64,000 nucleotides of DNA from Botryllus schlosseri (GCA_051294905.1 CM119371.1:3226001-3290000), one strand, 5' to 3'; positions 30,290-58,000 are shown, numbered from the stretch's first letter. The notes: generated from the letters alone by a model not told the origin. Numbers and translations are program-made.

Positions 30290-30394
30290 CACTAGGACAC
30301 TGTCCTCAAACCTAATTGTTGTAGCTACATCAGCATGACGGCCGATTTAAACCGGTCAGAGTTCGAGTGTTGCTGAATGTAACCTACGACAGTT

Positions 30395-31094: not shown

Positions 31095-31228
31095 AAACAT
31101 TCAGCGGGAATCATGTCGCGTTAAGGGAGACTGATCTACTACAGGGTTGGATAGATATTTGTAATGATTCATTGGAGATAATGGTGGGCTAGCCAGGATT
31201 AGATTTCGGAGAAATATGGTAACTGTCG

Positions 31229-31883
31229 GGCGCTTCTTCGATATACGCCCGAGATCGAAACAGTGTTTCACGTAACACCAGCAAGTGCTTTTTTTGCCTT
31301 TGGAGAGACAGATATTAGGGCTGGGGGTGGGTTAGGGTCGAAGTTGGGGTTAGGGTATCCCAAGATTACGGTTGGCGACGGGGTATTAGGGAAGAGGAAG
31401 GAGAGATATTACGGTTGGATGTGGGTTAGGGTCAAAGTTGGGGTTAGGGTATCCCAAGATTAGGGTTGAAGAAGGGCATATTAAGGTTGGGGGAGGGGTA
31501 TAAGAGTTGGATGCGGGTTAGGGTCAAAGTTGAATTGGGGGTATCCCAAAATTAGGGTTTGGGAAGGGGAATATTAGAGTTGGGGGAGGGGGTTCTTAGA
31601 GTTGGATGTGGGTTGGGGTTAGGGTTAAAGTTGAGGTTAGGGTTTCCCCAACCCTAATTCTCCCCTCTCCCCCAACCCTACTCTTGGGATACCCTAACCC
31701 CGACTTTGAACCTAACCCACATCCAACACCAATATATCCATTCCACCAACCCTAATATCCGTCTATTCAAACGAGGAAAAAAATATTTTGACGTTTATAA
31801 ATTTATATCGTGTTCATGGAAAAACATTTATGGGTGTCATGGGGAGCACTGTTTTGATCTCGGGCGTATATCGAAGAAGCGCC
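31229..31883. mobile_element. MITE copy B, near-identical to copy A and in the opposite orientation
   Basis: Same TIRs; the internal sequence is the reverse complement of 30395-31094 with small indels. Confidence 0.9.
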
Positions 31884-31964
31884 GAATGTTTTGCTAAGAA
31901 AACTGAGCCGTTGTCCGCAGTGTGGTTGTCGTTGTTGTTGCCGATATGGATCGTCGAGTTATTA

Positions 31965-33062
31965 CAGGGGTGGGCAAACTACGGCCCGCGGGCCGCATGC
32001 GGCCCGCCACGTCGTTTTGTACGGCCCGCGAGAGTCTAAATAAATTTTTTAAAAATTTTGATAAAATGCGTACTAAAAATCGAATTAATGCAGGGACTTG
32101 ATTAACTTTTCTTATTATATTTCACCAGGATAATTCTAAGACAGTGGTTTTCAAACTGGTGGACGCAACCCCCTTGGGGGCGTGAAAGCCTCTGAAAGGG
32201 GCGCGAAGCTGAGCTTGACTGATAAAATTTTTGTGCTACGCGCAATTTTCAGCCAAGTCAGTGTTATTGCTATGTATTTAGTCTGAATTACATATTTAAA
32301 AATCTCTTATCCACAGTCGTATTCTTCACGCCATCAAACTACCCGTTAGGTTTGCTTCCATTCTGATTGCGTTTTGCGATATGACGATAAGAGGCCGTGA
32401 AATCTTTGACCATCATAAGGGGGTGGGGCGTGTCTTAAAAAGTTTGAGAACCACTGATCTAAGGTAAATACTTGATATCACAGCGGGGTAGCTGCAACGA
32501 GATTGACATAATTTGGATCACCAGTGAGGTTTTAGATTGCCCACTTCATTTTTAATTATTTCAGTGATGTGCTTATAAAAAACCGATTCGGGCGTGTTAT
32601 AAGCACATTCGTTGTCTGTACGCGTGGAATGGGGGTATGTATATTTTACCTACACAAAGTAGAAGCGTGTTTGAAGCTAACATGGTTATGATGCTGTTAG
32701 CATCGTGTGTCCTGGAACTGAGCCAAAAGTGGAATTACTAAATCTATGAACAGATCACTGCTTACAGATTTATATTTCAATCATATTCTAAGAATAGGGC
32801 CAACGGCCTTTTATCTCTATAGTTTTGACAAATTGGTTATTGAGGTCCGCCTGCCTATGAAATCTCGCCACTGTATGTTTCTGACGCGTGTACGATATCA
32901 TCAAAGCAATATTTGGCTTGTTTTAAATAAGCACATATATTGTCTCCACGCCATATATCAATATTACGTTTTGGGTTATAATCCCAATTTTATATAGTGC
33001 GGTCCGCGAATGAATTCAGATGTTGAATGCGGCCCGCGAGCTCAAAAGTTTGCCCACCCCTG
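31965..33062. mobile_element. hAT-type MITE with a nested MITE at 32142-32456
   Basis: TIRs caggggtgggcaaact / agtttgcccacccctg with perfect TSD agttatta; nested cagtggttttcaaact / agtttgagaaccactg with TSD ttctaaga/atctaagg. Confidence 0.9.
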
Positions 33063-33920
33063 AGTTATTATATTGTGACGTTGAAACCTTGACAGCGGCT
33101 TAACCTAAGGTCACGGAAAGGTAGTAGGACGTTCATTGATTGTGTAACAATTGGTTTGCAGCTCAACCTTTCGTGGCTCTGGAGCATTTGCCATTTCGTC
33201 AGATACCGAAATCAAAATCCAAGATTGAATACCGGATGCCGCGACGCTGCCAGAGATCGACTATTATACCAGAGACAAGAGATTGACTATTAATTCAACA
33301 CCGTGTAGTGGGCGAGTCTGATATCATAGAAATGTTGAATTAGGCGAATTGGAGGGACCGTTATACGATCGGCAACGCAGGACCATAACATCACTTTGTC
33401 AGACCCACCCTCCTCCCCGACAAAAAATCATTGGTATTGGGGAGTAGTTAGTATGATCGGTCGTGGTGTGCCATTGTGGCTTATGGGTGCGGCGGCGATT
33501 CGCCTGGAAACCCGGGGTGGCGATTCGCCTTTTTAGACCCCCCTCTGGGCCGCGATTCGCCATGTGTTCTTATGGGTGCGGTCGTGATTCGCCTTTCCAG
33601 GTATAGGCCGCGGTCGTGATTCGCCGTGAAAACTCGTGGTCGTGACTCGCCTTTTTTGCTATAGGCGGTGGCGGCGATTCGCCTGTCGTGTATTCTTACG
33701 GGATCTGTGGTGATTCGGCATGTGTTCTTATGGGTGCGGTCGTGATTCGTACTTTCGGTATAGACTGCGGGCGGCATGTCGTACTTTCAGCAAAAAAGGT
33801 GTGAAATAGTTTGCCAAGTCTAGGAATCACTTGCAAGGTAATATTTTGGTATTTAGTTTACCACAGAGCCGGCGTAGACGGCGATTCGAATATCAACAAT
33901 AACAACGCTCACGAATTAAC

Positions 33921-34876
33921 CAGTGTTGGGATCAAGTCACTACCTTCGAGTCACGAGTCATTTCGAGTCATTGCACATTTTGACTCGAGTCAAGTCAAGT
34001 CAATCGATTTTTGAAGGTGACTCGAGTCAAGTCAAGTCACTAGATTTTTGGAGGTGACTCGAGTCAAGTCGAGTCAAGTCAAGTCAAGTCACGAGTCAAG
34101 TCACAATTCAAGTCAAGTTGCCTTTTCAAAATGTGAGACATGGTTACGTAATTGAATCTTGCTAGCTGTATAAAATACAGATTGAGTGGTCATTGATTTT
34201 GAACAGATGAACGAATATAGATTTAAATGTGCAAGCAAGAAGGCGCTGTATCGCTCACATATACCTACAACTGCTAACTACGTAAGTAATTGCAGAGTCT
34301 CAGGTTATAGTTACGAGCCAAAATCGAGAAAAGAATTTATAAGATACAATACATTATGTATTTACAAATTGATTCGACCTGCGCCAATGGTTGAGGGCTA
34401 TATACACGATATTTGAATTATATTTCAATAAAACAAGAGGTTTGCTTGAGGTAAGAACAGTGAACAGAAATAAAAATTTTGCTATTAAATTGCTCTACTA
34501 TACTAGTTTGCGACAACATAAGCTGTAAGTTTCGGTCCTATGGTTTGCGGTCAATTTATTAGGGAGAGAACAATAACGACTCAATAAAACGCACGACTAA
34601 TGAATGATTGGTCGCTCTCACGGGTTACACCAGCGTTTCGCGAGCAATCTGAACATATGCAAGATACAATATTTTTTGTCGACACCGATTACTTGATGAC
34701 TTGAAATTGACTCGTGAATTTTGCTCCGAGTCACGAGTCAATCCTCATTTCTGATACGCCGAGTCAAGTCAAGTCAAGTCATTTCAGCAAAGTGACTCGA
34801 GTCAAGTCAAGTCATCCGAAAAAGGTGACTCGAGTCTGACTCGAGTCAAGTCATGACTCGAGTCATCCCAACACTG
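33921..34876. mobile_element. hAT-type MITE inserted in the left arm only of element 1
   Basis: TIRs cagtgttgggat / atcccaacactg; TSD gaattaac; the empty site (single gttaattc) is at 45823-45830 in the right arm. Confidence 0.95.
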
Positions 34877-37800
34877 GAATTAACACTTCAAATAGCTGTG
34901 AAATAGTTTGCAAAACCCCGCGATCGCTAACAAGATAATGTCTCGGTCATAACCATCTTTCACGACTTGGTGTCATAACCATACCGATCGCTCACGCGGA
35001 GAAATTTTAGTAATCAGTTTGTCACAGAACTTGATATCGCTGGTAAGATTTAACAAGTAACGAATAACAGACCGCGGTAACTTGAATAGCGACAAATTGT
35101 CACTTATTTCCGCTCTAACCCTAATCCTTTGTGAAGTGAACGCTTATTCAAAAGGGTGTGATATAATTTTAAAATCCAACGACCACTCACCGGATAATAC
35201 TTCAGACATAGCAATTCCTCATACCCGCCCACAAGGTAATATTTCGGTAATTAGTTTGTCACAGAACCGTCGCAGGCGGTGATTGGAAAACCGACAATTT
35301 GTCACTCGCCCGCGATCGCTATATGTTTCACGCCTCCAGAATAGTGGCTGACTTTAGTTGCGTGATAAGATCCATGAAAATATTCAATCAATGTGTTAGT
35401 TTATCAACTTGAAATGAAACTCACTACACAAATCAAGTCGATTCGTATCTGAATGTTTTAAATCGGTACAACTCTAATCCTTTGACAAATCCCATAACGC
35501 GTTTTTGTTGAATCGAACGTAACCCGAATATTACTGACGCCGACTTTCAGCCGCATCGAATTATTCGCACATTCCGCGCCACTGTTTTCACACTTATAGA
35601 ATCAATACCAACTATAACTCTACAAGAATCAAGAATCACAAGTATGTGCATTACACAGTTATTGTCTTTATTAACTTGAAATCAAACACTTAACAAAAAC
35701 ACGCAACTAATCATTTGGCAACTCTAGCATTACCAAAAAATTCCAGTATTGTTGATTGAAAATCCTTGAGTCATTATTATCAAAAATGTTATAGTACCGC
35801 ATCGAAATCCATTCGCGGGATGTACTAAAGGTAAATCCAGATAATCCAAAATGAAATATTTGGACTTTGACAAACATGACTACCAACTTTGATCCAGTCA
35901 TATTTCAAGATCATACTTTGAAACAATCCTTGAAACTTACAACTCTATTCACGACTGAGTTTTCCGTTTATCAAATAGAGTTTCAGTAAATACTATCGCG
36001 ATATTTAATGTGTTACTACACACAATAGAATCAATCAATGAAATACCACCTGTTGTAAATATTTCTAACTTGACAACCACTTGTGCATACCGTGATCAAG
36101 TTGCGACGCGATGAGTTAAATCGGGATATTTCAATCTATTTGTCGAAACCTTGAACAAACTATCAGGTTATTTATTGTTGTAATCGAGTGAACGGAAATA
36201 GTATTACGTCTCAACATTTTAACATCTCCCCATACACAAAAGAGTAAAATACAAAAAAACCTTGTCAAGTCAATCCGTTTGTAACTTACCCAACCAAAAC
36301 AAAAAGTATCCTTATGAAAAGTAGACAAGACTACGTGAGTAATCACCACAATCCAAAATCCATAGCAAGTTCGGTTGCATTCATAGTCCACCAACTCGTA
36401 TTTTTATTCCACTTTAAAAGTCGTTACTATTCCGCAAGACAAAGAAATTACTATGTGGTATATTTTGTAAGACAAAAGTAATTACTTCTCAGTGTCGGCG
36501 ACTTGAGATTAACATACTATGTTTGAGTATACGAGATTTGACAGTCTGACCATCGTAGTTGAGAATTCATCTCTTACAATCGAACACAGGTGTTATATCA
36601 AAAGTTATCATACTGTAAACATAAGGATTGACACATTGATTTGACGTATTTAATAGTTGATCACGACTTGATTATTAAATTATTCGCGTTAATTAAACCC
36701 GCGTTGTGTTGAAAGTTATGACAGTAACAAACTTTTCGGAAACGTTGTTATTAACATATTGATTTGTAAAACTATACTTGTCTGAAATGTTCTTGATTTG
36801 GAAGATATTCCGTGTTGGTACAAATCACTCTGCGTATTGCGGATATCAGGAAATATTTTACAAATGTAATTGTTTCCAGTAACCAAGACTAAAGACGAAA
36901 CAACAACATCGGTATTATTACATTCAACAACCAGTACAATTATTAAAATCTATCGTTTGCTATAACCGGGGCTAAAGATGTAACAATTCCATTATTCATA
37001 TATTGAAACGACTAAGTGGAGAATCATTAGGCCTATATCACAATATCGTTACTATTGAATCCAACGATTTATTGTCGGAATTTGTGACAGAGAATTGAAA
37101 CATATGCACTTTACAGAGTGTGAAAATATCACTTTGAGTATCGAGTACCGTTCGAAGCTAGCGATCAATTCTTAATCATTTCAGTAACTCCCCATTGTGC
37201 GTGCCAAATGTAAAATATCGCGAGGTTATACACTCTAAGACTTTGATTATTGCAAAAGTAAATTGTGATATGTTTGTTAGATGCATCCAATTCAACTAGA
37301 AGTGTCTAGTGCCCAACACTCGTAATATCGAAAAAGTACTTGCCACACTGTTATTTGCTAAACGTGTTTTGCATTGTTGCTCATTTCTAGTATTGATTGA
37401 AATCATTCTCGAACCCTCAAATAGTAATTCCCGACATGAAACCAAGCCGCTGAAAGTCGTTACCATCACGAAGATACAATGTGCACGATGTTTGTCAAAT
37501 GTGTCCTACCTGGCCAACAGAAAACAATTTTCACTCACTCGAAATGAAACCAATGTGATGGTCTCCATTCGATATTTTGTTCGTGTCAAATACTTTGCAA
37601 TGAACACATTTGCGTGGTTGAGCTTTGCCATCATCAAGCTGTCATTTGTATCTTTTAATTAACCGACATTTAGCGATTGGTGAACATACCGACCGATACA
37701 CAGTCACTTCGAAATACTCCGTTGATCGTAATTTCCATCATCATAATAATCGAAGTACAATTGTTTCGAATCGATAGACTGGTTGAGCTTTACATCATCA

Positions 37801-39259
37801 GACTGCCATCTGTACATCAAGAATACATCCGTCTTGTAACTGGGTCGTTTACCTAACCGAGTTGTATGCACCGTTTGATATTTAGCGATTGCAGAACATA
37901 CCATTTCGAAATACTACGTTGATCTCAATTCCTTTGTCGTGATAATCGAAGTATATTTGTTTCGATTTCATAAAAACCAACTTTTCTATGACATGATAAA
38001 TTTTTGAAAAGTTATACTTAGAAGGTTGGTGCATATCGCGAAAAATAATATACCATGCATATTGATATTGCTACTCCATTGATCGGTATTTTCACGCGAG
38101 TCGATTTTCAAATGAGTAAAATTTATTACATGAGTTTCTCCGCTTAATGTAAATGAAAACTCAGTCGTCTTTTAACATCACAAAGACATTGATAAAATGT
38201 AAGCAATCAAACACAACACTTTGTACGACACTAATTATTGTTCCACACATCTCATTTCATACTAAGTGTATACGAAAGATATTCATGTTACACGAAAATA
38301 TTCGCTCATGCTACAAACCTGTACAATGATTGGTGGTGTAAGGCCAGCCCAATTGTGGTATCCATCCGAGTTTAGTTAACACAATTTACGACACCGAGGT
38401 CGCCTCATCTTTCGTAAGACAACAAACCAAGGCTTCAGGATATGTCCATGTCATAACAATAAATCAGCTACTCCAACAACAGAGTACATATGTTTTCTAG
38501 CACGGTGCTTACATCTTACACACAAATCAACCCACTTTGCTAACGAAAAGTGCTGAGTCATCACAACAATACAACTAAAACATACTATCATACAAAATGG
38601 CCGTTATAGTCACCAATGGTACATCGTACCAGTAACAAGTCTCGAGAATCAAGTTTTCCAAAAAACGTGAAAGTATTTCTACACCAAGTCGTTATGTTGA
38701 CGAAGACGTATATTGTAATATCATGATCGATTTACATTCGTTGGTCACAAAATGTCACTACTCTAAATAATTATTTTTCACTCAAAGCCTACTTGTCACC
38801 ATTCGTTTCATCAAGCACGAGTTCAAGAAACCTGCTACGACGTGAATTGATATTTTTATGTTGTGTAAATAGGTAATAATCAATTTTAGTAACACTATAT
38901 CAACATCATCGAGTTGTGCGAATAGATTTACATGTGGTCTTGTGGTTTTAATCGAAGTATACAGCACGGTCTAATGTAGAGTCATCTCTATTGTACAACA
39001 ACTCGGTAATCGAAATGCATTAAAATTTAAACAACGATCTTGTTTCGTCGCACCAAAAATATGTTTACTATCACGATACTCTGCACAGGTCGTGTAAATC
39101 CTTTTCACACTCGTAATAGTATACCAACGGATACCGGCGACAACGTTTAACAATACCAACGACACTAAATATACGATACCTACCCAAGTAAAATTACCAT
39201 TTTCACCTGGAGGTCGGTCGTTACCCGAGTAGAAATACCATTGTCCTTTGGAGATTTAT

Positions 39260-39740
39260 CGTTTACCCAGTGTAACAAACCCCTTACCCTTTGGAAATCT
39301 ATTTTTTCTCTGGGTAACAAACCTTTTTCACTTGGAAATATATTTTTTCTCTGGTTAACAAACCTTTTTCACTTGGAAATATATTTTTTCTCTGGGTAAC
39401 AAACCTTTTTCACTTGGAAATATATTTTTTCTCTGGGTAACAAATCTTTTTCACTTGGAAATATATTTTTTCCGCGGGTAACAAACCTTTTTCCCTGAGC
39501 AAGAAACCATTTTCACTTGGTGGTCCATCGTTTTACCCGAGTAAAAATATCATTTTCTTTTGGAGATCCGGCGTTTACCCAGTGTAACAATACATTTTCA
39601 CTTGGAAAAATACTTTTACCTAGAGTAACTAATCATTTTCTCCTGGGTAACAAACCCTTTTCGTCTGGAAACTATCATTTACCTGAGTACCAATACAGTT
39701 TTCACTTGGAAATCTACCTTCTCCCTGGGTAACAATATCA
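39260..39740. repeat. ~39-40-bp tandem array inside the arms (aaacctttttcacttggaaatatattttttctctgggtaac)
   Basis: Several near-perfect units plus degenerate flanks; mirrored at ~42200-42680 and present in element 2 at ~54720-55260 and ~57640-58180. Confidence 0.9.
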
Positions 39741-41128
39741 GTTTCGTTTTGAAAACTGACAACCACACCGGACAATTTGATATTTTTGTATATTGTTACA
39801 ACGGGCAGCGACAAAATATACACCAACAACGACTCCGATACATTTGTCTAATCAAATATTCACTTGATCTGATGCATCCCATCAAAATCATTGGTTACTC
39901 ACATACAATAACAATGAACTGTTGTACATCGACATGTATGTTTTCGGAATTGGCGAATAAATGGGTTTCCGATATGTCCGTGATGTCCGGGTTCGTGCTT
40001 TGGATTTTCCAGAGTCAAAATGCCTGAATAAAACACCTCCTCGACTTTGGTAGCTGGTTGATACACGGATAATGGTATTCGGAAAACGGATGAATTTATG
40101 TTCCCCATCGCGCCAACAACTCCGGGTTACTTGTGAGTTTCCTCAGCTCTGTTTACTATATTGTGTCTTTACTGATCAATACATGTCGCTCCAGTAAGCT
40201 GAAGCCGGATCACTAATATGAGAAAGTGTGTGGGGGCCTGATCCGGATATTCACTCATGAACCAACGACCAATATTCAAGTAAACATGTTACAGACAGTG
40301 TTTTGTCTCCATGAAAAATACCAACCATCACATACAAGTAACGTCACGATTGTTCACAAGTATTCGCGTAAACCAGGTGTACATACAATGTGTCGGTGTA
40401 CAAACATCACGGAAAACAAATTCATGTTCTCAAGTCTCATCATGCGACGACTCTGTACATTCAATGTGGGCATAGATGACTTGGGGACAGGCAAGCAGCC
40501 ATATTTGGACGTAACATGGTCTTAGTATGAACCGGCCTCCGCCCAACTTGTGAAAAATGAATCTCACACGAGTACAATCCTTTCACGGTTTACACCTTGA
40601 TTTTGCAAGATTGTTTGGATTCTCAGGTAGACTTGCATCGTGATCCGGACCTCGATATAATCGTGTTGCGTAACTCACTCAATCCCTGCGTATCGTTGGT
40701 CATAACCTGCTAACTTTTTCGCCGAGACCGCAGTGTTTCACCTGGTTTTATGTATTTGGCGATCACCATCGTTATCAATCTTTCAGGTGATGAATATGCC
40801 GGATGTTGCTACTCCCACATAACGACTCCAGCTAAACATCGTGAGCAGTGACTCCGGATTGAAATCGTAAACAGGGACTCTGTGTGTGTGTGTGAATCTC
40901 GAGTTCGAATACGATTAGATAATGTAATCCAAGGTGTGTCTCTGCGGGTTGAAGACTGATTTCTTGTTAACCACTCCGCAAGAGGGTGCTGTCTCGTAAT
41001 TCTACATGTCGTTATAAAACGTGGTTGGAAACTTTTGGTCTAGTTGATCCAGCTACGTATTGAAACGGTGCACTCACGCAGACCACTGAGAAAACGTTGT
41101 CGTTACCTGACTATATCCACGAGTAATT

Positions 41129-41404
41129 ATGGGACTACGCATAACGTTCCATAGATTCCTCTGGCCCCACACCGTGGTTTTACGACACAGACAAGATGCA
41201 GCGGTGGAAATATTGAAAATGAAAAACGATACCTTGGTGACATTTGATTTGGATTTTACACCTGATGAACCATACACTCGATTGGTACATTGGGATGACA
41301 ACTCTATCGTCGAGGTCGAGGGAAAAGAAATGTACAGATTTGTTGGTGTTGTGGATATTCAGCGAAAATCAGGGTATATGGTTGTGTATGGTTCGCATAT
41401 TTGA
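41129..41404 (+). CDS. 91-aa hypothetical protein in the loop of element 1
   Basis: Intact ATG..TGA; aligns without gaps to 56371-56096 at 55/91 identities (hand count), with synonymous changes (FTPDEPY: cct/ccc, gat/gac, cca/cct). Confidence 0.75.
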   Translation: MGLRITFHRFLWPHTVVLRHRQDAAVEILKMKNDTLVTFDLDFTPDEPYTRLVHWDDNSIVEVEGKEMYRFVGVVDIQRKSGYMVVYGSHI

Positions 41405-44400
41405 CTGAGAATATATCGGTATGCATAATGCACTGTCCATTGTGTCATGACGTGTGTCATCTATGGCCACATTGAATGTACAGAGTCGTCGCATGATGAG
41501 ACTTGAGAACATGAATTTGTTTTCCGTGATGTTTGTACACCGACACATTGTATGTACACCTGGTTTACGCGAATACTTGTGAACAATCGTGACGTTACTT
41601 GTATGTGATGGTTGGTATTTTTCATGGAGACAAAACACTGTCTGTAACATGTTTACTTGAATATTGGTCGTTGGTTCATGAGTGAATATCCGGATCAGGC
41701 CCCCACACACTTTCTCATATTAGTGATCCGGCTTCAGCTGACTGGAGCGACATGTATTGATCAGTAAAGACACAATATAGTAAACAGAGCTGAGGAAACT
41801 CACAAGTAACCCGGAGTTGTTGGCGCGATGGGGAACATAAATTCATCCGTTTTCCGAATACCATTATCCGTGTATCAACCAGCTACCAAAGTCGAGGAGG
41901 TGTTTTATTCAGACATTTTGACTCTGGAAAATCCAAAGCACGAACCCGGACATCACGGACATATTGGAAACCCATTTATTCGCAAATTCCGAAAACATAC
42001 ATGTCGATGTACAACAGTTCATTGTTATTGTATGTGAGTAACCAATGATTTTGATGGGATGCATCAGATCAAGTGAATATTTGATTAGACAAATGTATCG
42101 GAGTCGTTGTTGGTGTATATTTTGTCGCTGCCCGTTGTAACAATATACAAAAATATCAAATTGTCCGGTGTGGTTGTCAGTTTTCAAAACGAAAATGATA
42201 TTGTTACCCAGGGAGAAGGTAGATTTCCAAGTGAAAACTGTATTGGTACTCAGGTAAATGATAGTTTCCAGACGAAAAGGGTTTGTTACCCAGGAGAAAA
42301 TGATTAGTTACTCTAGGTAAAAGTATTTTTCCAAGTGAAAATGTATTGTTACACTGGGTAAACGCCGGATCTCCAAAAGAAAATGATATTTTTATTCGGG
42401 TAAAACGATGGACCACCAAGTGAAAATGGTTTCTTGCTCAGGGAAAAAGGTTTGTTACCCGCGGAAAAAATATATTTCCAAGTGAAAAAGATTTGTTACC
42501 CAGAGAAAAAATATATTTCCAAGTGAAAAAGGTTTGTTACCCAGAGAAAAAATATATTTCCAAGTGAAAAAGGTTTGTTAACCAGAGAAAAAATATATTT
42601 CCAAGTGAAAAAGGTTTGTTACCCAGAGAAAAAATAGATTTCCAAAGGGTAAGGGGTTTGTTACACTGGGTAAACGATAAATCTCCAAAGGACAATGGTA
42701 TTTCTACTCGGGTAACGACCGACCTCCAGGTGAAAATGGTAATTTTACTTGGGTAGGTATCGTATGTTTAGTGTCGTTGGTATTGTTAAACGTTGTCGCC
42801 GGTATCCGTTGGTATACTATTACGAGTGTGAAAAGGATTTACACGACCTGTGCAGAGTATCGCGATAGTAAACATATTTTTGGTGCGACGAAACAAGATC
42901 GTTGTTTAAATTTTAATGCATTTCGATTACCGAGTTGTTGTACAAAAGAGATGACTCTACATTAGACCGTGCTGTATACTTCGATTAAAACCACAAGACC
43001 ACATGTAAATCTATTCGCACAACTCGATGATGTTGATATAGTGTTACTAAAATTGATTATTACCTATTTACACAACATAAAAATATCAATTCACGTCGTA
43101 GCAGGTTTCTTGAACTCGTGCTTGATGAAACGAATGGTGACAAGTAGGCTTTGAGTGAAAAATAATTATTTAGAGTAGTGACATTTTGTGACCAACGAAT
43201 GTAAATCGATCATGATATTACAATATACGTCTTCGTCAACATAACGACTTGGTGTAGAAATACTTTCACGTTTTTTGAATAACTTGATTCTCGAGACTTG
43301 TTACTGGTACGATGTACCATTGGTGACTATAACGGCCATTTTGTATGATAGTATGTTTTAGTTGTATTGTTGTGATGACTCAGCACTTTTCGTTAGCAAA
43401 GTGGGTTGATTTGTGTGTAAGATGTAAGCACCGTGCTAGAAAACATATGTACTCTGTTGTTGGAGTAGCTGATTTATTGTTATGACATGGACATATCCTG
43501 AAGCCTTGGTTTGTTGTCTTACGAAAGATGAGGCGACCTCGGTGTCGTAAATTGTGTTAACTAAACTCGGATGGATACCACAATTGGGCTGGCCTTACAC
43601 CACCAATCATTGTACAGGTTTGTAGCATGAGCGAATATTTTCGTGTAACATGAATATCTTTCGTATACACTTAGTATGAAATGAGATGTGTGGAACAATA
43701 ATTAGTGTCGTACAAAGTGTTGTGTTTGATTGCTTACTTTTTATCAATGTCTTTGTGATGTTAAAAGACGACTGAGTTTTCATTTACATTAAGCGGAGAA
43801 ACTCATGTAATAAATTTTACTCATTTGAAAATCGACTCGCGTGAAAATACCGATCAATGGAGTAGCAATATCAATATGCATGGTATATTATTTTTCGCGA
43901 TATGCACCAACCTTCTAAGTATAACTTTTCAAAAATTTATCATGTCATAGAAAAGTTGGTTTTTATGAAATCGAAACAAATATACTTCGATTACCACGAC
44001 AAAGGAATTGAGATCAACGTAGTATTTCGAAATGGTATGTTCTGCAATCGCTAAATATCAAACTGTGCATACAACTCGGTTAGGTAAACGACCCAGTTAC
44101 AAGACGGATGTATTCTTGATGTACAGATGGCAGTCTGATGATGTAAAGCTCAACCACTCTATCGATTCGAAACAATTGTACTTCGATTATTATGATGATG
44201 GAAATTACGATCAACGGAGTATTTCGAAGTGACTGTGTATCGGTCGGTATGTTCACCAATCGCTAAATGTCGGTTAATTAAAAGATACAAATGACAGCTT
44301 GATGATGGCAAAGCTCAACCACGCAAATGTGTTCATTGCAAAGTATTTGACACGAACAAAATATCGAATGGAGACCATCACATTGGTTTCATTTCGAGTG

Positions 44401-47250
44401 AGTGAAAATTGTTTTCTGTTGGCCAGGTAGGACACATTTGACAAACATCGTGCACATTGTATCTTCGTGATGGTAACGACTTTCAGCGGCTTGGTTTCAT
44501 GTCGGGAATTACTATTTGAGGGTTCGAGAATGATTTCAATCAATACTAGAAATGAGCAACAATGCAAAACACGTTTAGCAAATAACAGTGTGGCAAGTAC
44601 TTTTTCGATATTACGAGTGTTGGGCACTAGACACTTCTAGTTGAATTGGATGCATCTAACAAACATATCACAATTTACTTTTGCAATAATCAAAGTCTTA
44701 GAGTGTATAACCTCGCGATATTTTACATTTGGCACGCACAATGGGGAGTTACTGAAATGATTAAGAATTGATCAATTGAATTGTTTCAAAGTATGATCTT
44801 GAAATATGACTGGATCAAAGTTGGTAGTCATGTTTGTCAAAGTCCAAATATTTCATTTTGGATTATCTGGATTTACCTTTAGTACATCCCGCGAATGGAT
44901 TTCGATGCGGTACTATAACATTTTTGATAATAATGACTCAAGGATTTTCAATCAACAATACTGGAATTTTTTGGTAATGCTAGAGTTGCCAAATGATTAG
45001 TTGCGTGTTTTTGTTAAGTGTTTGATTTCAAGTTAATAAAGACAATAACTGTGTAATGCACATACTTGTGATTCTTGATTCTTGTAGAGTTATAGTTGGT
45101 ATTGATTCTATAAGTGTGAAAACAGTGGCGCGGAATGTGCGAATAATTCGATGCGGCTGAAAGTCGGCGTCAGTAATATTCGGGTTACGTTCGATTCAAC
45201 AAAAACGCGTTATGGGATTTGTCAAAGGATTAGAGTTGTACCGATTTAAAACATTCAGATACGAATCGACTTGATTTGTGTAGTGAGTTTCATTTCAAGT
45301 TGATAAACTAACACATTGATTGAATATTTTCATGGATCTTATCACGCAACTAAAGTCAGCCACTATTCTGGAGGCGTGAAACATATAGCGATCGCGGGCG
45401 AGTGACAAATTGTCGGTTTTCCAATCACCGCCTGCGACGGTTCTGTGACAAACTAATTACCGAAATATTACCTTGTGGGCGGGTATGAGGAATTGCTATG
45501 TCTGAAGTATTATCCGGTGAGTGGTCGTTGGATTTTAAAATTATATCACACCCTTTTGAATAAGCGTTCACTTCACAAAGGATTAGGGTTAGAGCGGAAA
45601 TAAGTGACAATTTGTCGCTATTCAAGTTACCGCGGTCTGTTATTCGTTACTTGTTAAATCTTACCAGCGATATCAAGTTCTGTGACAAACTGATTACTAA
45701 AATTTCTCCGCGTGAGCGATCGGTATGGTTATGACACCAAGTCGTGAAAGATGGTTATGACCGAGACATTATCTTGTTAGCGATCGCGGGGTTTTGCAAA
45801 CTATTTCACAGCTATTTGAAGTGTTAATTCGTGAGCGTTGTTATTGTTGATATTCGAATCGCCGTCTACGCCGGCTCTGTGGTAAACTAAATACCAAAAT
45901 ATTACCTTGCAAGTGATTCCTAGACTTGGCAAACTATTTCACACCTTTTTTGCTGAAAGTACGACATGCCGCCCGCAGTCTATACCGAAAGTACGAATCA
46001 CGACCGCACCCATAAGAACACATGCCGAATCACCACAGATCCCGTAAGAATACACGACAGGCGAATCGCCGCCACCGCCTATAGCAAAAAAGGCGAGTCA
46101 CGACCACGAGTTTTCACGGCGAATCACGACCGCGGCCTATACCTGGAAAGGCGAATCACGACCGCACCCATAAGAACACATGGCGAATCGCGGCCCAGAG
46201 GGGGGTCTAAAAAGGCGAATCGCCACCCCGGGTTTCCAGGCGAATCGCCGCCGCACCCATAAGCCACAATGGCACACCACGACCGATCATACTAACTACT
46301 TTGGGGCCCCATACGGTGATATGCCCGACTTTTCGGGTAAGAAGTCCATTTGGCTTTAGTTTTTGGGCTGCTACTTATCAGCGAGTTTTGTGTACTGTTT
46401 GGCAAGTCAGCTTTAGTCGTCTAGACTCGCGAAAGACGAAATTTTTATATAATACATGACTAAATCGGTCAATATGATCAGGAATTGGATATATATGTTG
46501 TTATCATTTTTTTATTTCCTCTCTGGTCATTTAACCAGATTTATTGGTAGAACTGAGTGAGTTGTCTTGGAAAATGTAGGGGCCGTTAATAATGATGAAA
46601 CAACTTCGGGCGGACCCGTTGGTATAATGATTTTATCGCATGATATTATTTAGTGACCTCCTGTCTGCTATGTCGAAAGATACTGGCAAATAATTTTTCC
46701 CTGCGAGATGACATCTGTCTTGTGGGATTCAAATTTCTTGGACAGGAACGTTCAGCGTCATATATTTAGCGGCTATGGACATATTGGACAATATATCGAA
46801 GTTTTCGGTCAGTATAGGGGCGGTCTTTTTCAGCCAAGGATTTCTCTCTGGCGATTTTCCTGACACACTTCTCGGGGTCGCATGTGACATGGCCTAAAAC
46901 CACATATATCTTGGTACGTTGTGGCACCGTAATGGCCGAGGCCGAAATGTCAATTTCTCTAAATAATGCTCATCTGTTCTTGGGGAGGTAACCAATACTC
47001 AGGATATTTGGCAACAATAAATCGCGCGCAACGCGGAACATTTATGAAAATGTTGGATATCTATGAATTTCCCAAATTTCCAATTTCGTTAGGTTTGGGG
47101 TACCACAGAAGCCTGAACACTAATGAAATCTTCAAGACTTCCAGGCCTGGAAAAACTTCTTCACATATTTTGAACATCATTGTAAAGGTGCCTTCAGCAG
47201 ACCCTTCCCCAAATTTACAAACCGTATTGAATAAAGAGCATTATACTCAC

Positions 47251-49000: not shown

Positions 49001-52000
49001 AGTAGTATAGTAGATCGCTCACATGACGCGCTTTTTAACATGGGGTAGTATAGGGCCCGCTGGTGAGGTGCCGCGAAACTCGTGTTGGTGATGGCACCCT
49101 TTTGACCCCCCCTTCCGCTGGTGAGGTGCCATGGGTTCTTATGGGATCTCTGGTGATGGTACCCTTTCAGGTATAGGCTGCGTCAGTGATGTGCCGTGAA
49201 AACTCGTGTTGGTGAGTCGTATTTTCGGGTATAGGCTGTGTCGGTGATGTGCCTGTCATGTATTCTTACGGGATCTCTGGTGATGTGCCATTGTCTCTTA
49301 TGGTATCTCTGGTGACGGCACCCTTTCAGGTATAGGCTGCGTCGGTGATGTGTCTGTCATGTATTCTTACGGGGTCTCTGGTGATTCGCCATGTGTTCTT
49401 ATGGGTGCGGTCATGAATCGCCCTTTCGGGTCTAGTCAACTCTCGCGCTGTGTTGAATAGGTATCAGGAATAGTAAATAGTCACGTGATTGATTCTTAGT
49501 TAATGTGTACATTACAAATTATTAAATATGACTGATTCGAGTTAATCCCAACGTTTACGGTGAGTACGACAATGATATATCGTTATTCTTATGGCGGGGG
49601 TGGCATGCGGCTCTTATGTCTTACGGCGGGGGTCGCATGCGGCTGGGAAATCCGGGGTGGCAAGCGGCTCTTTTGTCTTATGGCGGGGGTGGCATGCGGC
49701 TATTTGTGTCTTGTGGTCGCACGGTAATCCTTTCAGGTAGAGATGATTTGACTAACGTTGTGGGTATAGGCGCGGCGGCACGGTGTTGAATATGTACCAG
49801 ATGAATAGTCATGTGAATGTACCTTTGTTAATGTGTATATCGTAAATTATTATATATGATGTAGTTTAGTCGTGACAAACGACCGATCGTCTCAAGTCTT
49901 TTCGCGCTGTGTCTATTGATTTCTACGTAACCTGAATAGTACTTTCAGATCGGATTATTCGCACCTTGTATACCGCTGTTTCGCACCTACAGAATAGTCT
50001 GCTGTTCACAACCACAACAAGAATCACAAGTATACACATTTATACATTCATTCATTACTGTCAAATCAAACTAAAGCACGCACAATCGTATCATTAACTT
50101 TTTTTTACCATCACCCAAAATAATTCAAGTATTCCTTGGCTGAAAATCCTTGAGTCCTTATTATCAAAAATGTTATGGTGCGGTGTCGGAATCCATTCGC
50201 AGGATGTACTAAAGGTAAATTCAGATAATCCACCCGCGATCGCTCACAAGATAATACCTAAGACATAACCATCGCTCGCGACTCGCTGTTACATGCATGC
50301 CGATCGTTAACAATGTAATATTTTGGTAATTGGTTTGCCACAGAGCCGGCGTAGACGGTGATTCGAATATCAACAATAGCAGCGTTCACAAACCAACACT
50401 TCAAAAACGCGTGAAATAGGTTACAAATCCCACGATTGCTCACAAGATAACACCAAAGACATAGCCATTTCTCGCGTCTTGTCATTACATACATCCCAAT
50501 CGCTACAGTGTAATATGTCGATGGTTGTTACTATCAAGTAATAAGTAATGAATAACAGTACCAGCGCAGACCGTGATTCGAAAACCGACAATTTGACACT
50601 TGCACGCGATCGCTATATGTTTTGACACTTCATAACAGTCGTTGACTTTGCGTGATACAAATCATGAAAATATTCAATCAGTGTGTCAATTTGTCAACTT
50701 GAAATGAAACTTACTACACAGCTCAAGTTGATTCGTATCTGAATGTGTTAATTCGGTACAATTCTAATTATTTTGAGTAATCTTTTTAACGCGATCAGTT
50801 GATTCGAACGTAACCTGAATATTACTGACTCCAACTTCAGCCGCATCGAATTATTCACACATTCCACACCGCTGTTTCACACCTATAGAGTCAACACCAA
50901 CTAAGTCAACAAGAATCAAGAATCACAAGTACGCACATACAATCATTGCATTTATCAACTTGAAATCAAACAATTAACAAAAACATGCAACTAATCATTT
51001 GCCAACTCTAGCATTACCAAAAAATTCAGGTATTGTTGATTGAAAATCCTCGAGTCCTTATTATTAAAAATACGGGGTCGGAATCTATTCGCGAGATGTA
51101 CAAAAGGTAAATTCAGATAATCCAAAATGGAATATTTTGACTTTGGTATAGTGTGAATTGAAATAGGACTGACAAACATGACTACCAACTTTCACGCAGT
51201 CACATTTCGAGATTTCGGGCATATTGATTTGAAACAAGTATTGAAACATCACAACTCTATTCACGAATTGACTTTACGTATGTCAAAGAGAGTTTCAGAA
51301 ATACTATCGCTATGACATCTCAACATATTAACATCTTGTCATACGCAAAAGAGTAAAATACAAAAACCTTGTCAAGTCAATCCGTTTGTAACTTACCAGA
51401 CCAACTCAAACAGTATCAGTATGAAAAACAACCAAACATACACGAATCCATACAATCACTAAAACCTTAAATCCGTAACAAGCTTGGTTGTATTCATATC
51501 CCTACGACGCATCTTTTTTATTCAACTTGAAAAGTCGTTACTATTCTGTAAGATAGAGGAATTACTACGCGGTATATTCTGCAAGACAAACTAATTACTA
51601 CTCGGTATATTTTGTAAGACAAAAGTAATTACTTCTCAGTGTCGGCGACTTGAGATTAACATAATATGTTTGAGTATACGAGATTTGAAAGTCCGACCAA
51701 CGTAGTTGAGAATTCATTTCTTACAATCGAACGATGGTGTTATATTCAAAGTTATCATGCTGTGAACATAAGGATTGACACATTGATTTGACATATGAGA
51801 TTTTGTAATAGTTGATCATTACTTTATTATTAAATTATTTGCGTTAATTAGACACGGCGTTGTGCTAAATGTTATGACAGCAACAAACTTTTCAGTGCCA
51901 TTGTTCTTAACATATTAAGTTGTAAAACTATACGTGTCTGAAATGTTCTTGATTGGAGAATGACTCCACCTCGATAAAAATCACTCTGCGTATCGCGATA

Positions 52001-55000
52001 TCAGGAAATATTTTACAAATGTAATTGTTTCCAGTAACCAAGACTAAAGATGTAACAGCAATATCGGTATTATTACATTCAACAACCAGTACAATTATTA
52101 AAATCTATCGTTTGCGATAAACAACGCTAAAGATGCAATAATTCCATTATTCATACATTGAACATCCGATACAAAATGCTTTATTATCCCGATTCGCAAC
52201 GGGTAATTGAAACGACTAAGTGTAGAGTCAGTATATCACAATGAGACGTCGTTACTATTGAATCCAGCAATTGATACGATTTATTGCAGGGATTTGTGAC
52301 AGCGCATTGAAACATACACAACTTACAGAGTGTGAAAATATCACTTTGGGTATCGAGTACCCTTTGAAGCGCGCGATCAATACATAATTCCAGTCGCACT
52401 CTCTAAGACATTGTGAAGTCTACGGATTTACACTTCAAGACTTTGATCAACACAGAAGCAATTTGGAATGTCTTTACTGGACGCATCCTATTCTACTAGA
52501 CTTGAGTATACGCAAAACTCATAGCATTAACAAAATCGCAATAGGCGCTACACTGAAATTTACAAAATGTGTTTGTATTCTTGCTCAAAGTAGTGATCAT
52601 GAATTATCATTTGAATCTTCTAAAGTAATTGTAATCGTAAAACCAAACTTGCGAAAGTCATTACCATAACAGAAGAATATTGTAGGTTGCTTGCTAAATG
52701 TATGCCGGAAATATTTGTAGAACGCTCACGACCAAAGAAATCGGAAATTGTCATTCATCAAAGTAAATGTCGTCACAATACTCTGCCGCTAAAAGACGTT
52801 ACTCGTATGTGATTGAATCGCCGGTGATTAACTCGCTAAATCAAACCCTAAGAAATTTCACTCACTCATCGGATATTAAACAGCGTCGCTTAATCGGTGT
52901 AGTTCGTTTTTTTTTTCTAAATGCAAATCATACCTAGCCAAGAGAAAACAATTTTCACTCACCCGGTAATGAAACCAAGCGGTGGCTCTTCGTTCGATAT
53001 TTTGTTTGCGTCAAATACTTTGCAATGAACACATTTGAGTGGTTGAGCTTTACATCATCAAGCTGTCATCTGTAAATCGAGATTACATCCGACTTGTAAC
53101 TCTATCGTTTAACTAACCGAGTTGTATGCACAGTTTGATATTTTGGTCATTTAGTGATTGCTGAACATACCAAACGATGCACACCCACCTCCGAAATACT
53201 GCGTTGATCTTAATTTCCATCATCGTGATAATCGAAGTACATTTCCCTCGAATTCATAACAACCAACTATGACATGATAGATTTTTGACAAGTTTACTTA
53301 GAAGGTTTGTTGCATATCGCGAAAAATAATATACCACTCACATTGATACTTTTACTCCATTGATCGATATTGTCAAACGAGTAAAATTTATTACTTGAGT
53401 TTCTCCGCTTACTATATGTAAATGTAAACTCAGTCGTCTTTCAAAACCATAACAAACAATGATAAAAAGTAGGCAATCAAACGCTGCAAGTTTAACTTTT
53501 GTAGGTTGTGTATGATTACCCCACGCAACTCATTTCATACCAAAGGTATATGAAATATATTCATGTTACACGAAAATACTCGATATTCCCATGCTACAAA
53601 CCTGTACAATGATTGGTGGTGCTTTCAAACTGTTTCGATACCTCAAGAACTTTATTGTCTGAATGGTTGTTCATGTATCTTAATAATCAAGTAGTTCAAC
53701 ACAGAACTAGTATTAACAGAAACACCAGAGTTGTTTACACAAAAGTTTGTATGTGTACAGTATACGAATACCATGTGTAAGTCCAGCACAATTGTGGTAT
53801 CCATACGAGTTTAGTTAACACAATTTACGACACCGAGGTCGCGTCATCTTTCGTAAGACAACAAACCAAGGCTTCAGGATATGTCCATGTCATAGCAATG
53901 AATCAGCTACTCCAACAACAGAGTGCATATGTTTTCTAGTTACGGTGCTTACATCTTACACACAAATCAATCTACTTTGCTAACGAAATGTGGTGAGTCA
54001 TCATATGGTTATCCTCACTAGTAAAACATACTATCATACAAAATGGTCGTTATAGTTTGCACACCAACGGTACATCGTACAAGTAACAAGTCTCGAGAAT
54101 CCAGTTATTCAAAAAACGTGAAAGTATTTCTACACCAAGTCGTTATGTTGACGAAAGCGTATATTGTAATATCATGATCGATTTGCATTCGTTGGTCACA
54201 AACTGTCACTACTCTAAATAATTCTTTTTCACTCAAACACAAACGCATACTTGTCACCATTCGTTTTCATCAAGTACGAGTTCAAGAAACTTACTACGAC
54301 ATGAATTTTTATTTTTATATTGTGTAAATAGGTATTAATTAATTCAAGTAACACTATATCAACATCATCGAGTTGTGCTAATAGATTTACATGTGGTCTT
54401 GTGGTTTTCGTCGGGACATACAGCACGAACTAACTGTAGACTCCTCTCTGTTGTACAGCTACTCGGTAATCGAAATGCATTAACATGTAAACAACGATCT
54501 TGTTTCGTCACACCAAAAATATGTTCACTGTCGCGATACTCCGCACAAGACGTGCATAGCCTTTTCACACTCGTAATAGTATACCAACGTCAAGCGATAA
54601 CGTTTAACAAGACCAACGACACTGAACCCACGACGTTTACCTATGTAAAATTACCACTTTCACTTCTCAGTCCATCGTTTACCTGACTAAACATATTATT
54701 CTCCTTTGGAGATCTGACGTTTACCCAGAGTAAGAAACCATTTTCACTTGTAAATATATTTTTTCCTTGGCTAACAAACCTTTTTTCACTTGGAAATATA
54801 TTTTTTCTCTGGTTAACAAACCTTTTTTCACTTGGAAATATATTTTTTCTCTGGTTAACAAACCTCTTTCACTTGGAAATATATATTTTTCCTCTGAGCA
54901 ACAAACCATTTTCATTGGAAATATATTTTTCCCTGAATAACAACCCATTTTCACTTGTAAATATATTTTTCCCTCAGCAACAAACCTTTTTCACTTGGAA

Positions 55001-58000
55001 ATATATTTTTCCCTGAGCAACAAACCATTTTCACTTGGTGGTCCGTCGTTTAGCCGAGTAAAAATATCATTTTCCTTTGGAGATCTGGCGTTTGCCCAGT
55101 GTAACTATACATTTTCGCTTGGAAAAATACTTTTACCTAGAGTAACTAATCATTTTCTCCTGGGTAACAATCCCTTTTCGTCTGGAAACTATCATTTAAC
55201 TGAGTACCAATACCGTTTTCACTTGGAAATACATTTTTTCCCTGGGTAACAATACCATTTTCGTTTTGAAAACTGACAACCACACCGGCCAATTTGATAT
55301 TTTTGTATATTGTTACAACGAACAGTGACGGAAATATACACAGACTACCGGTTTCAGAGTATACCCCCATCAGTCGTATCACATCAATATCATCGGTTAA
55401 CGACATACAATATGCTCTTGTACACCGAAATGCATGTTTTGGAAAATTGGACAATAGGCTTCGATAGTTCTGTGATGTCCGGGTTCGTGCTTTGGATTTT
55501 CCAGAGTCAAAATGTCTGAATAAAACACCTCCTTGACGATGGTTGGTATGTGGATAACGGTGTTCGGAAAACGGTTGGATTTATGTCACCCATCGCGATA
55601 ACAACTCCAGGTCGAGTTTTCCTCTCGCATGTTTACTATACTGTGTCTTTATTGGTCAATGTATGTCTCGACATTCAGTTTGAAATCGGAAATGATAAAG
55701 TATGTAACCGGATCCGGATATCAACTGTGAATCGATAAACCAATGGACAATATTCAAAGTAAACATGTTACACCCTGTGTTTCCACGAAAAAATACCATC
55801 CAGACATACGTCGCGCTTGTTTGCCCACACCAGTATACGCGTAAATGGAGGTGTGTGACATTGCATGCAATGTGTTGGTATACAAACATCGATCCACAGA
55901 CATTATCGTAGCCGGTAGTTTTGATGTAGATCGAATGTCACCTGATAACAATGTCATACCAATAAGCCACATTGCAATGACTCTGAGTCAATCTGAAGCA
56001 TGATATACGGACACACAAACATAGAAACCGTAACATGGGTATTCACACGACGGTGAAAGTGAACTATACAGCATATACCAATAGAGTGTTCACAGTCAAA
56101 TATGCGAACCGTGCACAATCATATACCCTGTTTTTTGTTGGATATGTACGAAACCAATAAATCGATACATTTCTGTTCCTTCGATGTCAATAATACAAGC
56201 GTCGTTCCAATGTATCGCTCGAATGTAAGGTTCGTCGGGTGTAAATGCCATGTCAAATAACACCAAAGTGTGCCTTCTGTGTTTTATTATTTCCACCGAT
56301 GCATCTTACCTGTGTCGTAACACTATGGTGCAGGGACTCGAAAAACGGTACTTTGTAAAACGGATTGACATGCCCAACTGAATCGACGTCAATAGCCTTG
56401 TGACGATGGCGTTTCAAAATGATACCGATCTCTTGTGGTGATGACCGTTTCGAAATGTCACCGGACGAACTGGACCCTTACGATGATGTGTTTTATGATT
56501 GCGTGTGAAATCACGAGGTAGTGTTCTATTGTGGTGTACGATTGCAGTCTTCATTCCACAGAAACATACCTTATTGGATCACAGTATCAGTCCGAGATTT
56601 ACAGAATCACTGTTCACGATATTTATCTGGAGTCGTTATGTGGGAGTAGCGACATCCATTCATCGTGACTGAAAGACTGATCGCAATCATTTCGAGCACC
56701 CGTGATTCGATAGTTCACCTAGATCAAACGCTGCAGTCTCGGCAGAAAATTTCGGTGTCGACAACACGACGGATATTGACCGATGTATCCAATTGGTCTG
56801 GGTGGTCTGTCTGCAGATAGAGTCATGACTATCTTGCAATGTAACAACACGATAAGACCATCGAGTAAATCAGTGAACGGTGTCGAAATATCGATGTAAT
56901 AGCGCAGACTCAGAGTCATTGCAATGTGGCTTATTGGTATGACATTGTTATCAGGTGACATTCGATCTACATCAAAACTACCGGCTACGATAATGTCTGT
57001 GGATCGATGTTTGTATACCAACACATTGCATGCAATGTCACACACCTCCATTTACGCGTATACTGGTGTGGGCAAACAAGCGCGACGTATGTCTGGATGG
57101 TATTTTTTCGTGGAAACACAGGGTGTAACATGTTTACTTTGAATATTGTTCATTGGTTTATCGATTCACAGTTGATATCCGGATCCGGTTACATACTTTA
57201 TCATTTCCGATTTCAAACTGAATGTCGAGACATACATTGACCAATAAAGACACAATATAGTAAACATGCGAGAGGAAAACTCGACCTGGAGTTGTTATCG
57301 CGATGGGTGACATAAATCCAACCGTTTTCCGAACACCGTTATCCACATACCAACCATCGTCAAGGAGGTGTTTTATTCAGACATTTTGACTCTGGAAAAT
57401 CTAAAGCACGAACCCGGACATCACAGAACTATCGAAGCCTATTGTCCAATTTTCCAAAACATGCATTTCGGTGTACAAGAGCATATTGTATGTCGTTAAC
57501 CGATGATATTGATGTGATACGACTGATGGGGGTATACTCTGAAACCGGTAGTCTGTGTATATTTCCGTCACTGTTCGTTGTAACAATATACAAAAATATC
57601 AAATTGGCCGGTGTGGTTGTCAGTTTTCAAAACGAAAATGGTATTGTTACCCAGGGAAAAAATGTATTTCCAAGTGAAAACGGTATTGGTACTCAGTTAA
57701 ATGATAGCTTCCAGACGAAAAGGGATTGTTACCCAGGAGAAAATGATTAGTTACTCTAGGTAAAAGTATTTTTCCAAGCGAAAATGTATAGTTACACTGG
57801 GCAAACGCCAGATCTCCAAAGGAAAATGATATTTTTACTCGGCTAAACGACGGACCACCAAGTGAAAATGGTTTGTTGCTCAGGGAAAAATATATTTCCA
57901 AGTGAAAATGGTTTGTTGCTGAGGGAAAAATATATTTACAAGTGAAAATGGGTTGTTATTCAGGGAAAAATATATTTCCAATGAAAATGGTTTGTTGCTC

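Follow-up and report, generated by a model that had tools for sequence, protein, structure and literature searches.

The window analysed here, a stretch of 64,000 nucleotides from Botryllus schlosseri (GCA_051294905.1 CM119371.1:3226001-3290000), raises the question of what kind of element a 12.9-kb, almost completely palindromic sequence with Polinton/Maverick-like ends can be when it carries no replication genes, and by what means such a sequence is propagated. This sequence, referred to as E1, is likely a helper-dependent, non-autonomous snap-back derivative of a Polinton/Maverick, near-fully palindromic and inserted by a Polinton integrase. It is one member of a family that numbers several hundred copies, and possibly about a thousand, and which to judge from the sequences is probably spread by the enzymes of full-length Polintons of the same genome. 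The original prediction, made from the DNA sequence alone, had placed the palindrome at 33443-46300, and both its coordinates and its structure were found to be as first described. The parts of E1 are as follows, in coordinates of the window and with the strand where one is assigned:

33443..46300: element E1, palindromic, 12,858 bp, likely a non-autonomous Polinton/Maverick derivative
33437..33442: left copy of the target-site duplication (TSD), ttgggg, 6 bp
46301..46306: right copy of the TSD, ttgggg, 6 bp
33443..40480: left arm, 7,038 bp including a nested insertion
41456..46300: right arm, 4,845 bp
40481..41455: loop, single-copy, 975 bp; 12 other copies have homologous loops (75-94% identity)
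33443..33681, plus strand: left terminal region, with an (AGT)2 start and repeated GGCGATTCGCC-like motifs, mirrored at 46062-46300
33921..34876: hAT-like non-autonomous element, only in the left arm, with the 8-bp duplication gaattaac
35928..37162: left-arm segment without a partner in the right arm, occurring in other copies
39272..39493: tandem array in the arm, with a repeat unit of 41 bp and a mirror array at about 42440-42664
41129..41404, plus strand: loop gene, 91 codons and a stop codon (coding 41129-41401), C-terminus GSHI

E1 starts at 33443 with AGTAGTTAGTATG and ends at 46300 with the reverse complement of AGTAGTTAGTATG, and the reading of both ends bears out the AGTAGT and ACTACT termini claimed for it, as well as the perfect 6-bp TSD. 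The paired arms, which had been put at about 4.8 kb, total 4,847 bp with 16 mismatches and are made up of three blocks, viz. an outer block (33443-33920 with 45823-46300, 478 bp, 100%), a middle block (34877-35927 with 44780-45830, 1,051 bp, 100%) and an inner block (37163-40480 with 41456-44773, 3,318 bp, 16 mismatches, 99.52%), and the predicted loop of 975 bp is present between them. The outer and the middle block of the left arm are separated by the hAT-like insert, whose ends are CAGTGTTGGGAT...ATCCCAACACTG, i.e. of the CAGTG...CACTG type, and a relative of which is found at 5867-6083. Since the unpaired segment 35928-37162 occurs in other copies, the right arm of E1 has a deletion of 1.2 kb. 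The earlier claim that E1 lacks replication genes is correct, as no polymerase, integrase, ATPase or capsid gene is encoded by it. The further claim that it has no long open reading frame (ORF) holds in so far as no ORF of at least 150 aa is present, but the conserved 91-aa gene in the loop had been missed. None of the 22 ORFs of at least 65 aa in E1 gave a Pfam match above the curated cut-offs, all similarities being at chance level, and an Rfam scan of 30000-64000 of the window gave no matches.

The evidence that E1 is one member of a family comes from searches of the 495.5-Mb assembly (219 contigs), for which all genome-wide counts reported here are lower bounds or unverified candidates. 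The sequences that were read comprise 11 copies of family 1, i.e. the family of E1, the neighbouring elements E2 and F3, one copy of the Polinton P1 and parts of the Polinton P4. The terminal 23-mer of E1, with up to 3 mismatches allowed, occurs 312 times in forward and 306 times in reverse orientation and a reversed control pattern 0 times, which shows that these ends are not due to chance. Among the 43 end pairs listed, the median spacing is 13,881 bp (interquartile range 13.3-14.8 kb, full range 7.0-28.2 kb), and in 33 of them it lies between 12 and 16 kb. All ten further copies that were fetched are palindromes, with arms of 6.1-6.7 kb that are 99.7-99.98% identical within a copy; six of them have loops of 0.66-0.98 kb, and in the remaining four the unpaired centre is wider (0.9-3.2 kb) because one arm holds an insert. 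The longest ORF in these ten copies is at most 163 aa. The original prediction depended on other copies having AGTAGT ends and 6-bp TSDs, and the ends were found in 12 of 12 end pairs (one of them with three AGT units) and perfect TSDs in 11. In the remaining pair (L005/L009, C3:31484567-31498622) the flanks read GTGGTC and CAAGTG, a mismatch which may have resulted from recombination between two copies. Many TSDs have ACG at positions 2-4 (CACGTG, CACGAC, CACGAG, GACGCA, GACGCT, TACGTA), which suggests a weak target preference. A 20.3-kb copy (L051) was considered as a helper and rejected, its extra length being a one-arm insert of several kb (L051:4300-9000, within C7:4468500-4477500) with overlapping minus-strand ORFs of 122-219 aa that match no Pfam family.

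The claim that a related copy lies 2.7 kb away, and that one is dealing with a family, is confirmed within the window itself, where a copy of another subfamily (E2) starts 2,700 bp downstream of E1 and is in turn interrupted by a palindrome of a second family (F3):

49001..60664: part of E2 within the window, a palindrome from another subfamily with 77-88% identity to E1
55990..56906: loop of E2, 917 bp
56099..56371, minus strand: E2 copy of the loop gene, with one in-frame stop codon
60665..64000: part of F3 within the window; F3 is 15,565 bp in full and nested in the right arm of E2

E2 starts with AGTAGTATAGTAGATCGCTC, a pattern present 48 times forward and 62 times reverse in the genome, and its paired arms comprise 50083-51217 with 59530-60664 (100%) and 53364-55989 with 56907-59532 (99.6%). 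Its right arm is broken at 60664/60665 by F3 and continues beyond it, where 171 of 171 positions match the left arm, up to the far end of E2 at the window-equivalent position 77317. F3 has AGTAGT ends, the end sequence AGTAGTATTATACAGCGGG and the 6-bp duplication cgattg, and it is a perfect palindrome through its centre, with an interior unrelated to that of E1; as it has no loop, it also has no loop gene. Its end pattern occurs 17 times forward and 18 times reverse, in pairs about 15-16 kb apart, four of them at 17.8 kb. In both E1 (35928-37162) and E2 (51218-53363) one arm is without an internal region, the two regions overlapping and the losses falling in different arms relative to the loop gene; perhaps the region concerned is easily lost.

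Within a copy, evolution of the two arms is concerted. In 12 elements the arm-to-arm differences number 108 in 74.8 kb (0.14%); between copies, the arms are 81-90% identical (a rough value, weighted by BLAST match length), i.e. they differ by 10-19%, and nearly all substitutions that separate the lineages are found in both arms of a copy. Sharing of this kind implies that either a step of the life cycle or a very efficient conversion copies one arm onto the other. The remaining differences are unevenly distributed. For the 12 elements their density is 0.9 per kb within the outer 5 kb and about threefold higher, 2.8 per kb, closer to the loop, and E1 has 0 in its outer 1,529 bp and 16 in its inner 3,318 bp. 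The outermost 1.1-3.3 kb of the arms are 100% identical in E1, E2 and F3.

The ORFs of the arms are not conserved and are interrupted by stop codons in other copies. The loop, in contrast, holds a gene for an orphan protein that is under purifying selection. The loops are homologous between copies (75-94%), lying on the chromosome in forward orientation in 8 and in reverse in 4 of 12 cases, and an ORF of at least 84 aa is open at the homologous place in 12 of 13 copies, the exception being E2 with its single in-frame stop; one of the 12 open genes is truncated and one is without a start codon. The Nei-Gojobori method was applied to 76 aligned codons of 9 copies. Of the 36 pairs, one was left out because its dS was low; each of the other 35, in which dS exceeds 0.1, has a ratio of nonsynonymous to synonymous divergence (dN/dS) of 0.09-0.44, and between subfamilies dS rises to 1.0-1.5. 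A genome-wide search with the protein gave 1,202 first-look candidates, of which the 150 best were scored; all of these are 91-100% identical, and 148 of them contain no stop codon. The selection on this gene, together with the intact TSDs, indicates that the divergence of the copies took place in lineages that were still active, and not after insertion. Only three relatives of the loop protein, all unnamed and of 91 aa, were found among 5.8 billion proteins, and a search of 1.84 billion cluster representatives gave nothing convincing. There was no significant match in Pfam or PHROGs, no match in PDB by sequence or profile search, and no usable match in the ESM Atlas, and neither P1 nor the portions of P4 that were fetched contain a homologue. 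A similarity to the WD40 repeats of a bacterial STAND protein was rejected as weak (hhalign probability 1.8%), and the AlphaFold model, with a mean predicted local distance difference test (pLDDT) score of 39, is unusable.

Polintons with ends of the same kind are present in this genome, and two of them are informative:

C2:2211650-2229478: Polinton P1, an F3-type end pair at 17.8 kb, not palindromic; its loci L056, L054 and L055 were kept separate
C4:15128927-15143965: Polinton P4, 15.04 kb, an E2-type end pair enclosing an integrase gene of the 51% identity tier described below

P1 has AGTAGT ends, inverted ends of about 250 bp that are 96% identical, and the duplication tacgta. It encodes an integrase (rve and Chromo domains), a Pox_A32-type ATPase and an ORF of 1,314 aa with the motifs KLCGNSAFG and GDTDS, which we take to be those of a family-B polymerase; PF03175 is found on 23 of 30 Atlas neighbours of this ORF. 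Comparison of the polymerase ORF and of a 443-aa ORF with solved structures gave nothing informative. Three accessory genes, which look like a set for the control of cell death, lie near the ends of P1 on the plus strand (L056:397-915, L056:1408-1878 and L055:3632-4036); their products are a Bcl-2 family protein (E 5e-21), an E2 ubiquitin-conjugating enzyme (E 2e-47) and a protein with a BIR/IAP domain (E 8e-11). With the P1 integrase as query, 116 loci were scored out of 954 candidates; nearly all are without a stop codon, and they fall into four tiers of identity (97-100%, about 76%, about 69% and about 51%). With the P1 polymerase, about 45 stop-free ORFs of 1,283-1,314 aa were found among the 50 loci scored of 318 candidates. 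A Pfam search of the genome for PF03175 gave no match, and in view of these approximately 45 intact polymerase ORFs the empty result was set aside as a false negative. Polintons are very abundant in this genome, and the scored copies are mostly intact.

The ends of these Polintons and those of the palindromes are homologous. Between the ends of P1 and F3 there are two matches, one of 252 bp (92%) and one of 431 bp (89%), and the longer one reaches into sequence which is present only at the right end of P1; as F3 is a palindrome, both of its arms hold this right-end-only sequence. P4 has AGTAGT ends with the terminus AGTAGTATAGTAGATCGGTCGCACG, inverted ends of 601 bp (99.3% identical), the duplication tacatc and a polymerase whose N-terminal part is 31% identical to that of P1 over 352 aa (E 7e-61). 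From the first base on, its end matches the first 239 bp of E1 (73% over 242 aligned columns, E 2e-33) and the first 247 bp of E2 (74%), with the blocks CTTATGGG, GAAAC.CG.G and TTTCAGACCCCCC, followed by repeated GGYGAYTCG motifs, in the same order. Further, E2 matches positions 452-782 of P4 at 83%, including about 160 bp that are present only at the left end of P4 and that lie where the two arms of E2 match perfectly; in E1, only the inverted-end part matches P4. The AGTAGT ends, the 6-bp TSDs and the homology with the P4 ends support the assignment of E1 to the Polinton/Maverick group that had been made in the original prediction. Its expectation of an autonomous Polinton with the ends of E1 is borne out in part, since P4 has homologous, colinear ends together with an integrase and a polymerase, but these ends are only 73% identical to those of E1. 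The true helper may on sequence grounds belong to a lineage other than that of P4. None of the tests by which the original prediction could have been refuted went against it.

These results are in accordance with a study of vertebrate Mavericks (PMC8097293), in which 5'-(AGT)2//(ACT)2-3' are the commonest ends, accompanied by 6-bp duplications, inverted ends measure 46-1,447 bp, element size is constrained (16.9 +/- 1.7 kb), and a role in jumping-back initiation of protein-primed replication is ascribed to the end repeats. In the mechanism that we propose for E1 and its relatives, the palindrome would have originated when a defective genome of half length, with a single Polinton end, snapped back or was dimerised tail to tail, which would have provided it with two identical ends and a length near that of the helper genome. 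A Polinton integrase supplied in trans would recognise these ends and insert the element, and the duplicated AGT would serve jumping-back initiation by the protein-primed polymerase of the helper. During replication the displaced single strand could fold into a full hairpin, in which mismatch repair would keep the arms identical, and the tight length (median 13.9 kb, as compared to Polintons of 15.0 and 17.8 kb) may reflect a limit of capsid packaging. The occurrence of a narrow, helper-like length in two unrelated palindromic families points to such a limit. The snap-back and satellite life cycle as a whole is what we infer from these features: action of the helper integrase and polymerase in trans is suggested by the ends, the TSDs and the many intact helper genes, and propagation during helper replication, with packaging, is suggested indirectly by the tight length near that of the helper and by the selection on the loop gene. 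In adenoviruses, vector genomes that are too short turn up as inverted dimers, and snap-back molecules are present in defective particles.

Carried to its full extent, the proposed mechanism leads to the reading that the palindromes are an endogenous satellite of polintoviruses, similar to a defective-interfering genome, i.e. a snap-back molecule of about 14 kb that is copied by the helper, packed into its capsid, infectious and also transmitted through the germ line. This reading is possible and is put forward tentatively. If it holds, every round of replication would pass through a full-length single-stranded hairpin and the arms would stay identical on this account, and the 91-aa protein would be needed whenever a single genome founds a new lineage; with a founding stage of this kind, one would understand that selection can still be seen in a family whose hundreds of copies could otherwise complement one another.

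Several observations weigh against the derivation of E1 from a Polinton through a snap-back genome. The family is known from integrated genomic copies alone, not from extrachromosomal, protein-linked or encapsidated forms. No Polinton with the exact terminal 23-mer of E1 was found in the genome, none of the listed end pairs with this 23-mer encloses a listed integrase locus, and the best helper match to the ends of E1 is only 73%. Searches (tblastn) with the P1 proteins found nothing in E1, E2, F3 or the ten other copies, and about 5 kb of each E1 arm are without an identified parent or origin, remnants of P1 genes not being detectable. Further, one of the 12 end pairs has no matching duplication, the loop protein belongs to no recognisable family, and the uneven distribution of the arm differences also fits gene conversion between arms within the chromosome.

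The last of these observations leads to the main rival reading, in which the palindromes are ordinary non-autonomous elements without any virus-like stage, moved by the Polinton integrase alone. Their length of about 14 kb would then simply be inherited and their arms kept alike by chromosomal gene conversion, as in the palindromes of sex chromosomes. The patchy arm differences that rise towards the loop fit a conversion process requiring homology on both sides, and one-arm insertions or deletions of at least 0.5 kb are present in 5 of 11 family-1 copies as well as in E2 and in the copy at C7:4462837, which indicates that those copies have spent time in the chromosome. However, decay after insertion would not give a loop gene with dN/dS of 0.09-0.44 that is intact in 148 of the 150 scored matches, and 11 of 12 duplications are perfect despite the difference of 10-19% between copies. 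The length is also tight (13.3-14.8 kb) though only the ends and a 273-bp gene would be needed, F3 of an unrelated palindromic family is likewise 15-16 kb long, and the conserved (AGT)2 ends, with three AGT units in one copy, suggest priming by a polymerase. Based on these considerations, the rival reading is regarded as possible but less likely.

It is far less probable that the palindromes are hairpin-RNA loci retained by the host, in which long double-stranded RNA and small RNAs from the arms silence Polintons and the resulting benefit explains their persistence. A perfect hairpin RNA would indeed be produced if the structure were transcribed, and the arms have end sequence in common with Polintons. 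However, hundreds of dispersed copies with fresh duplications are indicative of the spread of a parasite and not of a host locus, only about 240 bp per arm are Polinton-like (apart from the additional match of about 330 bp between E2 and P4), no Polinton coding sequence was found to be present in searches with the P1 proteins, and the selection is on the loop protein and not on the arms.

Still less credible is the view that E1 belongs to the foldback transposons of some other cut-and-paste superfamily (FB/Mutator-like, P/Galileo-like, IS3EU or Dada) and resembles Polintons by coincidence. The elements of this kind (viz. Drosophila FB and Galileo) share with the E1 family very long arms of high identity, internal tandem repeats, motifs near the ends and little or no coding sequence, and 6-bp duplications are also made by IS3EU and Dada. 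However, FB elements make duplications of 9 bp and P elements of 7-8 bp, and those of the E1 family, which is of a uniform length of about 14 kb, are of 6 bp. In addition, the terminal 240 bp are homologous to the ends of P4, a real Polinton, and align with them in colinear order, the ends of F3 and P1 are alike over 250-430 bp (89-92%), and no transposase of another type was seen in any copy. The combination of (AGT)2 ends and 6-bp duplications is, moreover, the published Maverick signature (PMC8097293). That the palindromes are assembly artefacts from foldback chimeric long reads, which can produce false palindromes, can be dismissed, since the same architecture is present at ten other loci, 11 of 12 end pairs have their own flanks with matching duplications, arm differences are scattered, and the arms of E1, like those of E2, carry different insertions with duplications of their own (the hAT-like element in E1, F3 in E2).

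The relationship of the E1 family to known systems can now be stated more precisely. E1 is not an autonomous Polinton, but it has the TSD, the end motif and the end homology of one. With the Polintons/Mavericks, as described for vertebrates in PMC8097293, it shares the (AGT)2//(ACT)2 ends, the 6-bp duplications, the inverted ends and a length near 14-17 kb, and the ends of the E1 family and of F3 are homologous to those of P4 and P1 of the same genome. However, the palindromes are without polymerase, integrase, ATPase, protease and capsid genes, the sole gene of the E1 family being the 91-aa orphan in the loop, and their inverted ends (arms of 6.1-6.7 kb) make up about 90% of the palindrome, compared to 46-1,447 bp in the elements of PMC8097293. 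With snap-back or copy-back defective viral genomes, as defined in PMC13506859, they share a highly symmetric palindrome and a total length near that of the helper, and the replication and integration proteins of a helper would be needed. In E2 and F3, sequence of one Polinton end is present in both arms (the left end of P4 for E2, the right end of P1 for F3), and the arms may thus derive from one parental end. Unlike these short-lived by-products of infection, the E1 family consists of integrated, heritable and diversified lineages in hundreds of copies, it has a conserved gene of its own, and it is known here from genomic copies. Transpovirons and virophage-type satellites (PMC5499653) resemble the E1 family in being small, linear and dependent on a virus, in having inverted ends, in their ability to integrate and in their origin from Polinton-like ancestors by loss of genes. 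Transpovirons, however, have a length of about 7 kb and a gene in which a helicase is fused to the remnant of a polymerase, and they are associated with the giant viruses of protists, whereas the E1 family has only the 91-aa gene, is a full palindrome and resides in an apparently animal host. In the literature searched, palindromic or near-gene-free Polinton derivatives are not described, the repeat databases Repbase and Dfam being outside this search.

The surroundings of E1 show some additional features. Its left flank (32400-33062 of the window) is a very high-copy repeat, whose contig depth in four public runs exceeds that of the barely covered 33063-33442 by a factor of hundreds. In run X6, one contig matches 33334-33442 and then continues with 167 letters unlike E1; it may represent an empty site. 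A separate palindrome of about 1.5 kb is located at 30389-31889, with arms of 375 bp (98%) and 236 bp (100%), many internal repeats and no AGTAGT ends. An open frame of 487 aa on the minus strand (27756-29219), 4 kb upstream of E1, encodes NACHT (E 7e-17) and NOD2 winged-helix domains and represents an immune gene, or an exon of one, of the NLR type. Together with the Bcl-2 and BIR genes of P1, this frame points to an animal as the host.

The results presented here bear on the question, still open in the field, of whether Polintons replicate by means of their own polymerase and form virions; virus particles of Polintons/Mavericks have not been seen (PMC8097293). What a dependent parasite has retained here, viz. 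the Polinton ends, a helper-like length, matched arms and one gene, shows what the Polinton machinery selects, namely the (AGT)2 ends, the repeated motifs near them and the length of the genome. For the genome of this organism, 300 copies of about 13.9 kb correspond to about 0.8% of the sequence, a share that would be larger should the 1,202 loop-gene candidates prove genuine. The family also provides a natural case of concerted evolution between inverted repeats of 6 kb, as well as simple markers by which replicating or packaged forms can be sought. If the satellite reading is true, it would be the first satellite-like Polinton parasite in an apparently animal genome, and its existence would constitute indirect evidence for Polinton virions.

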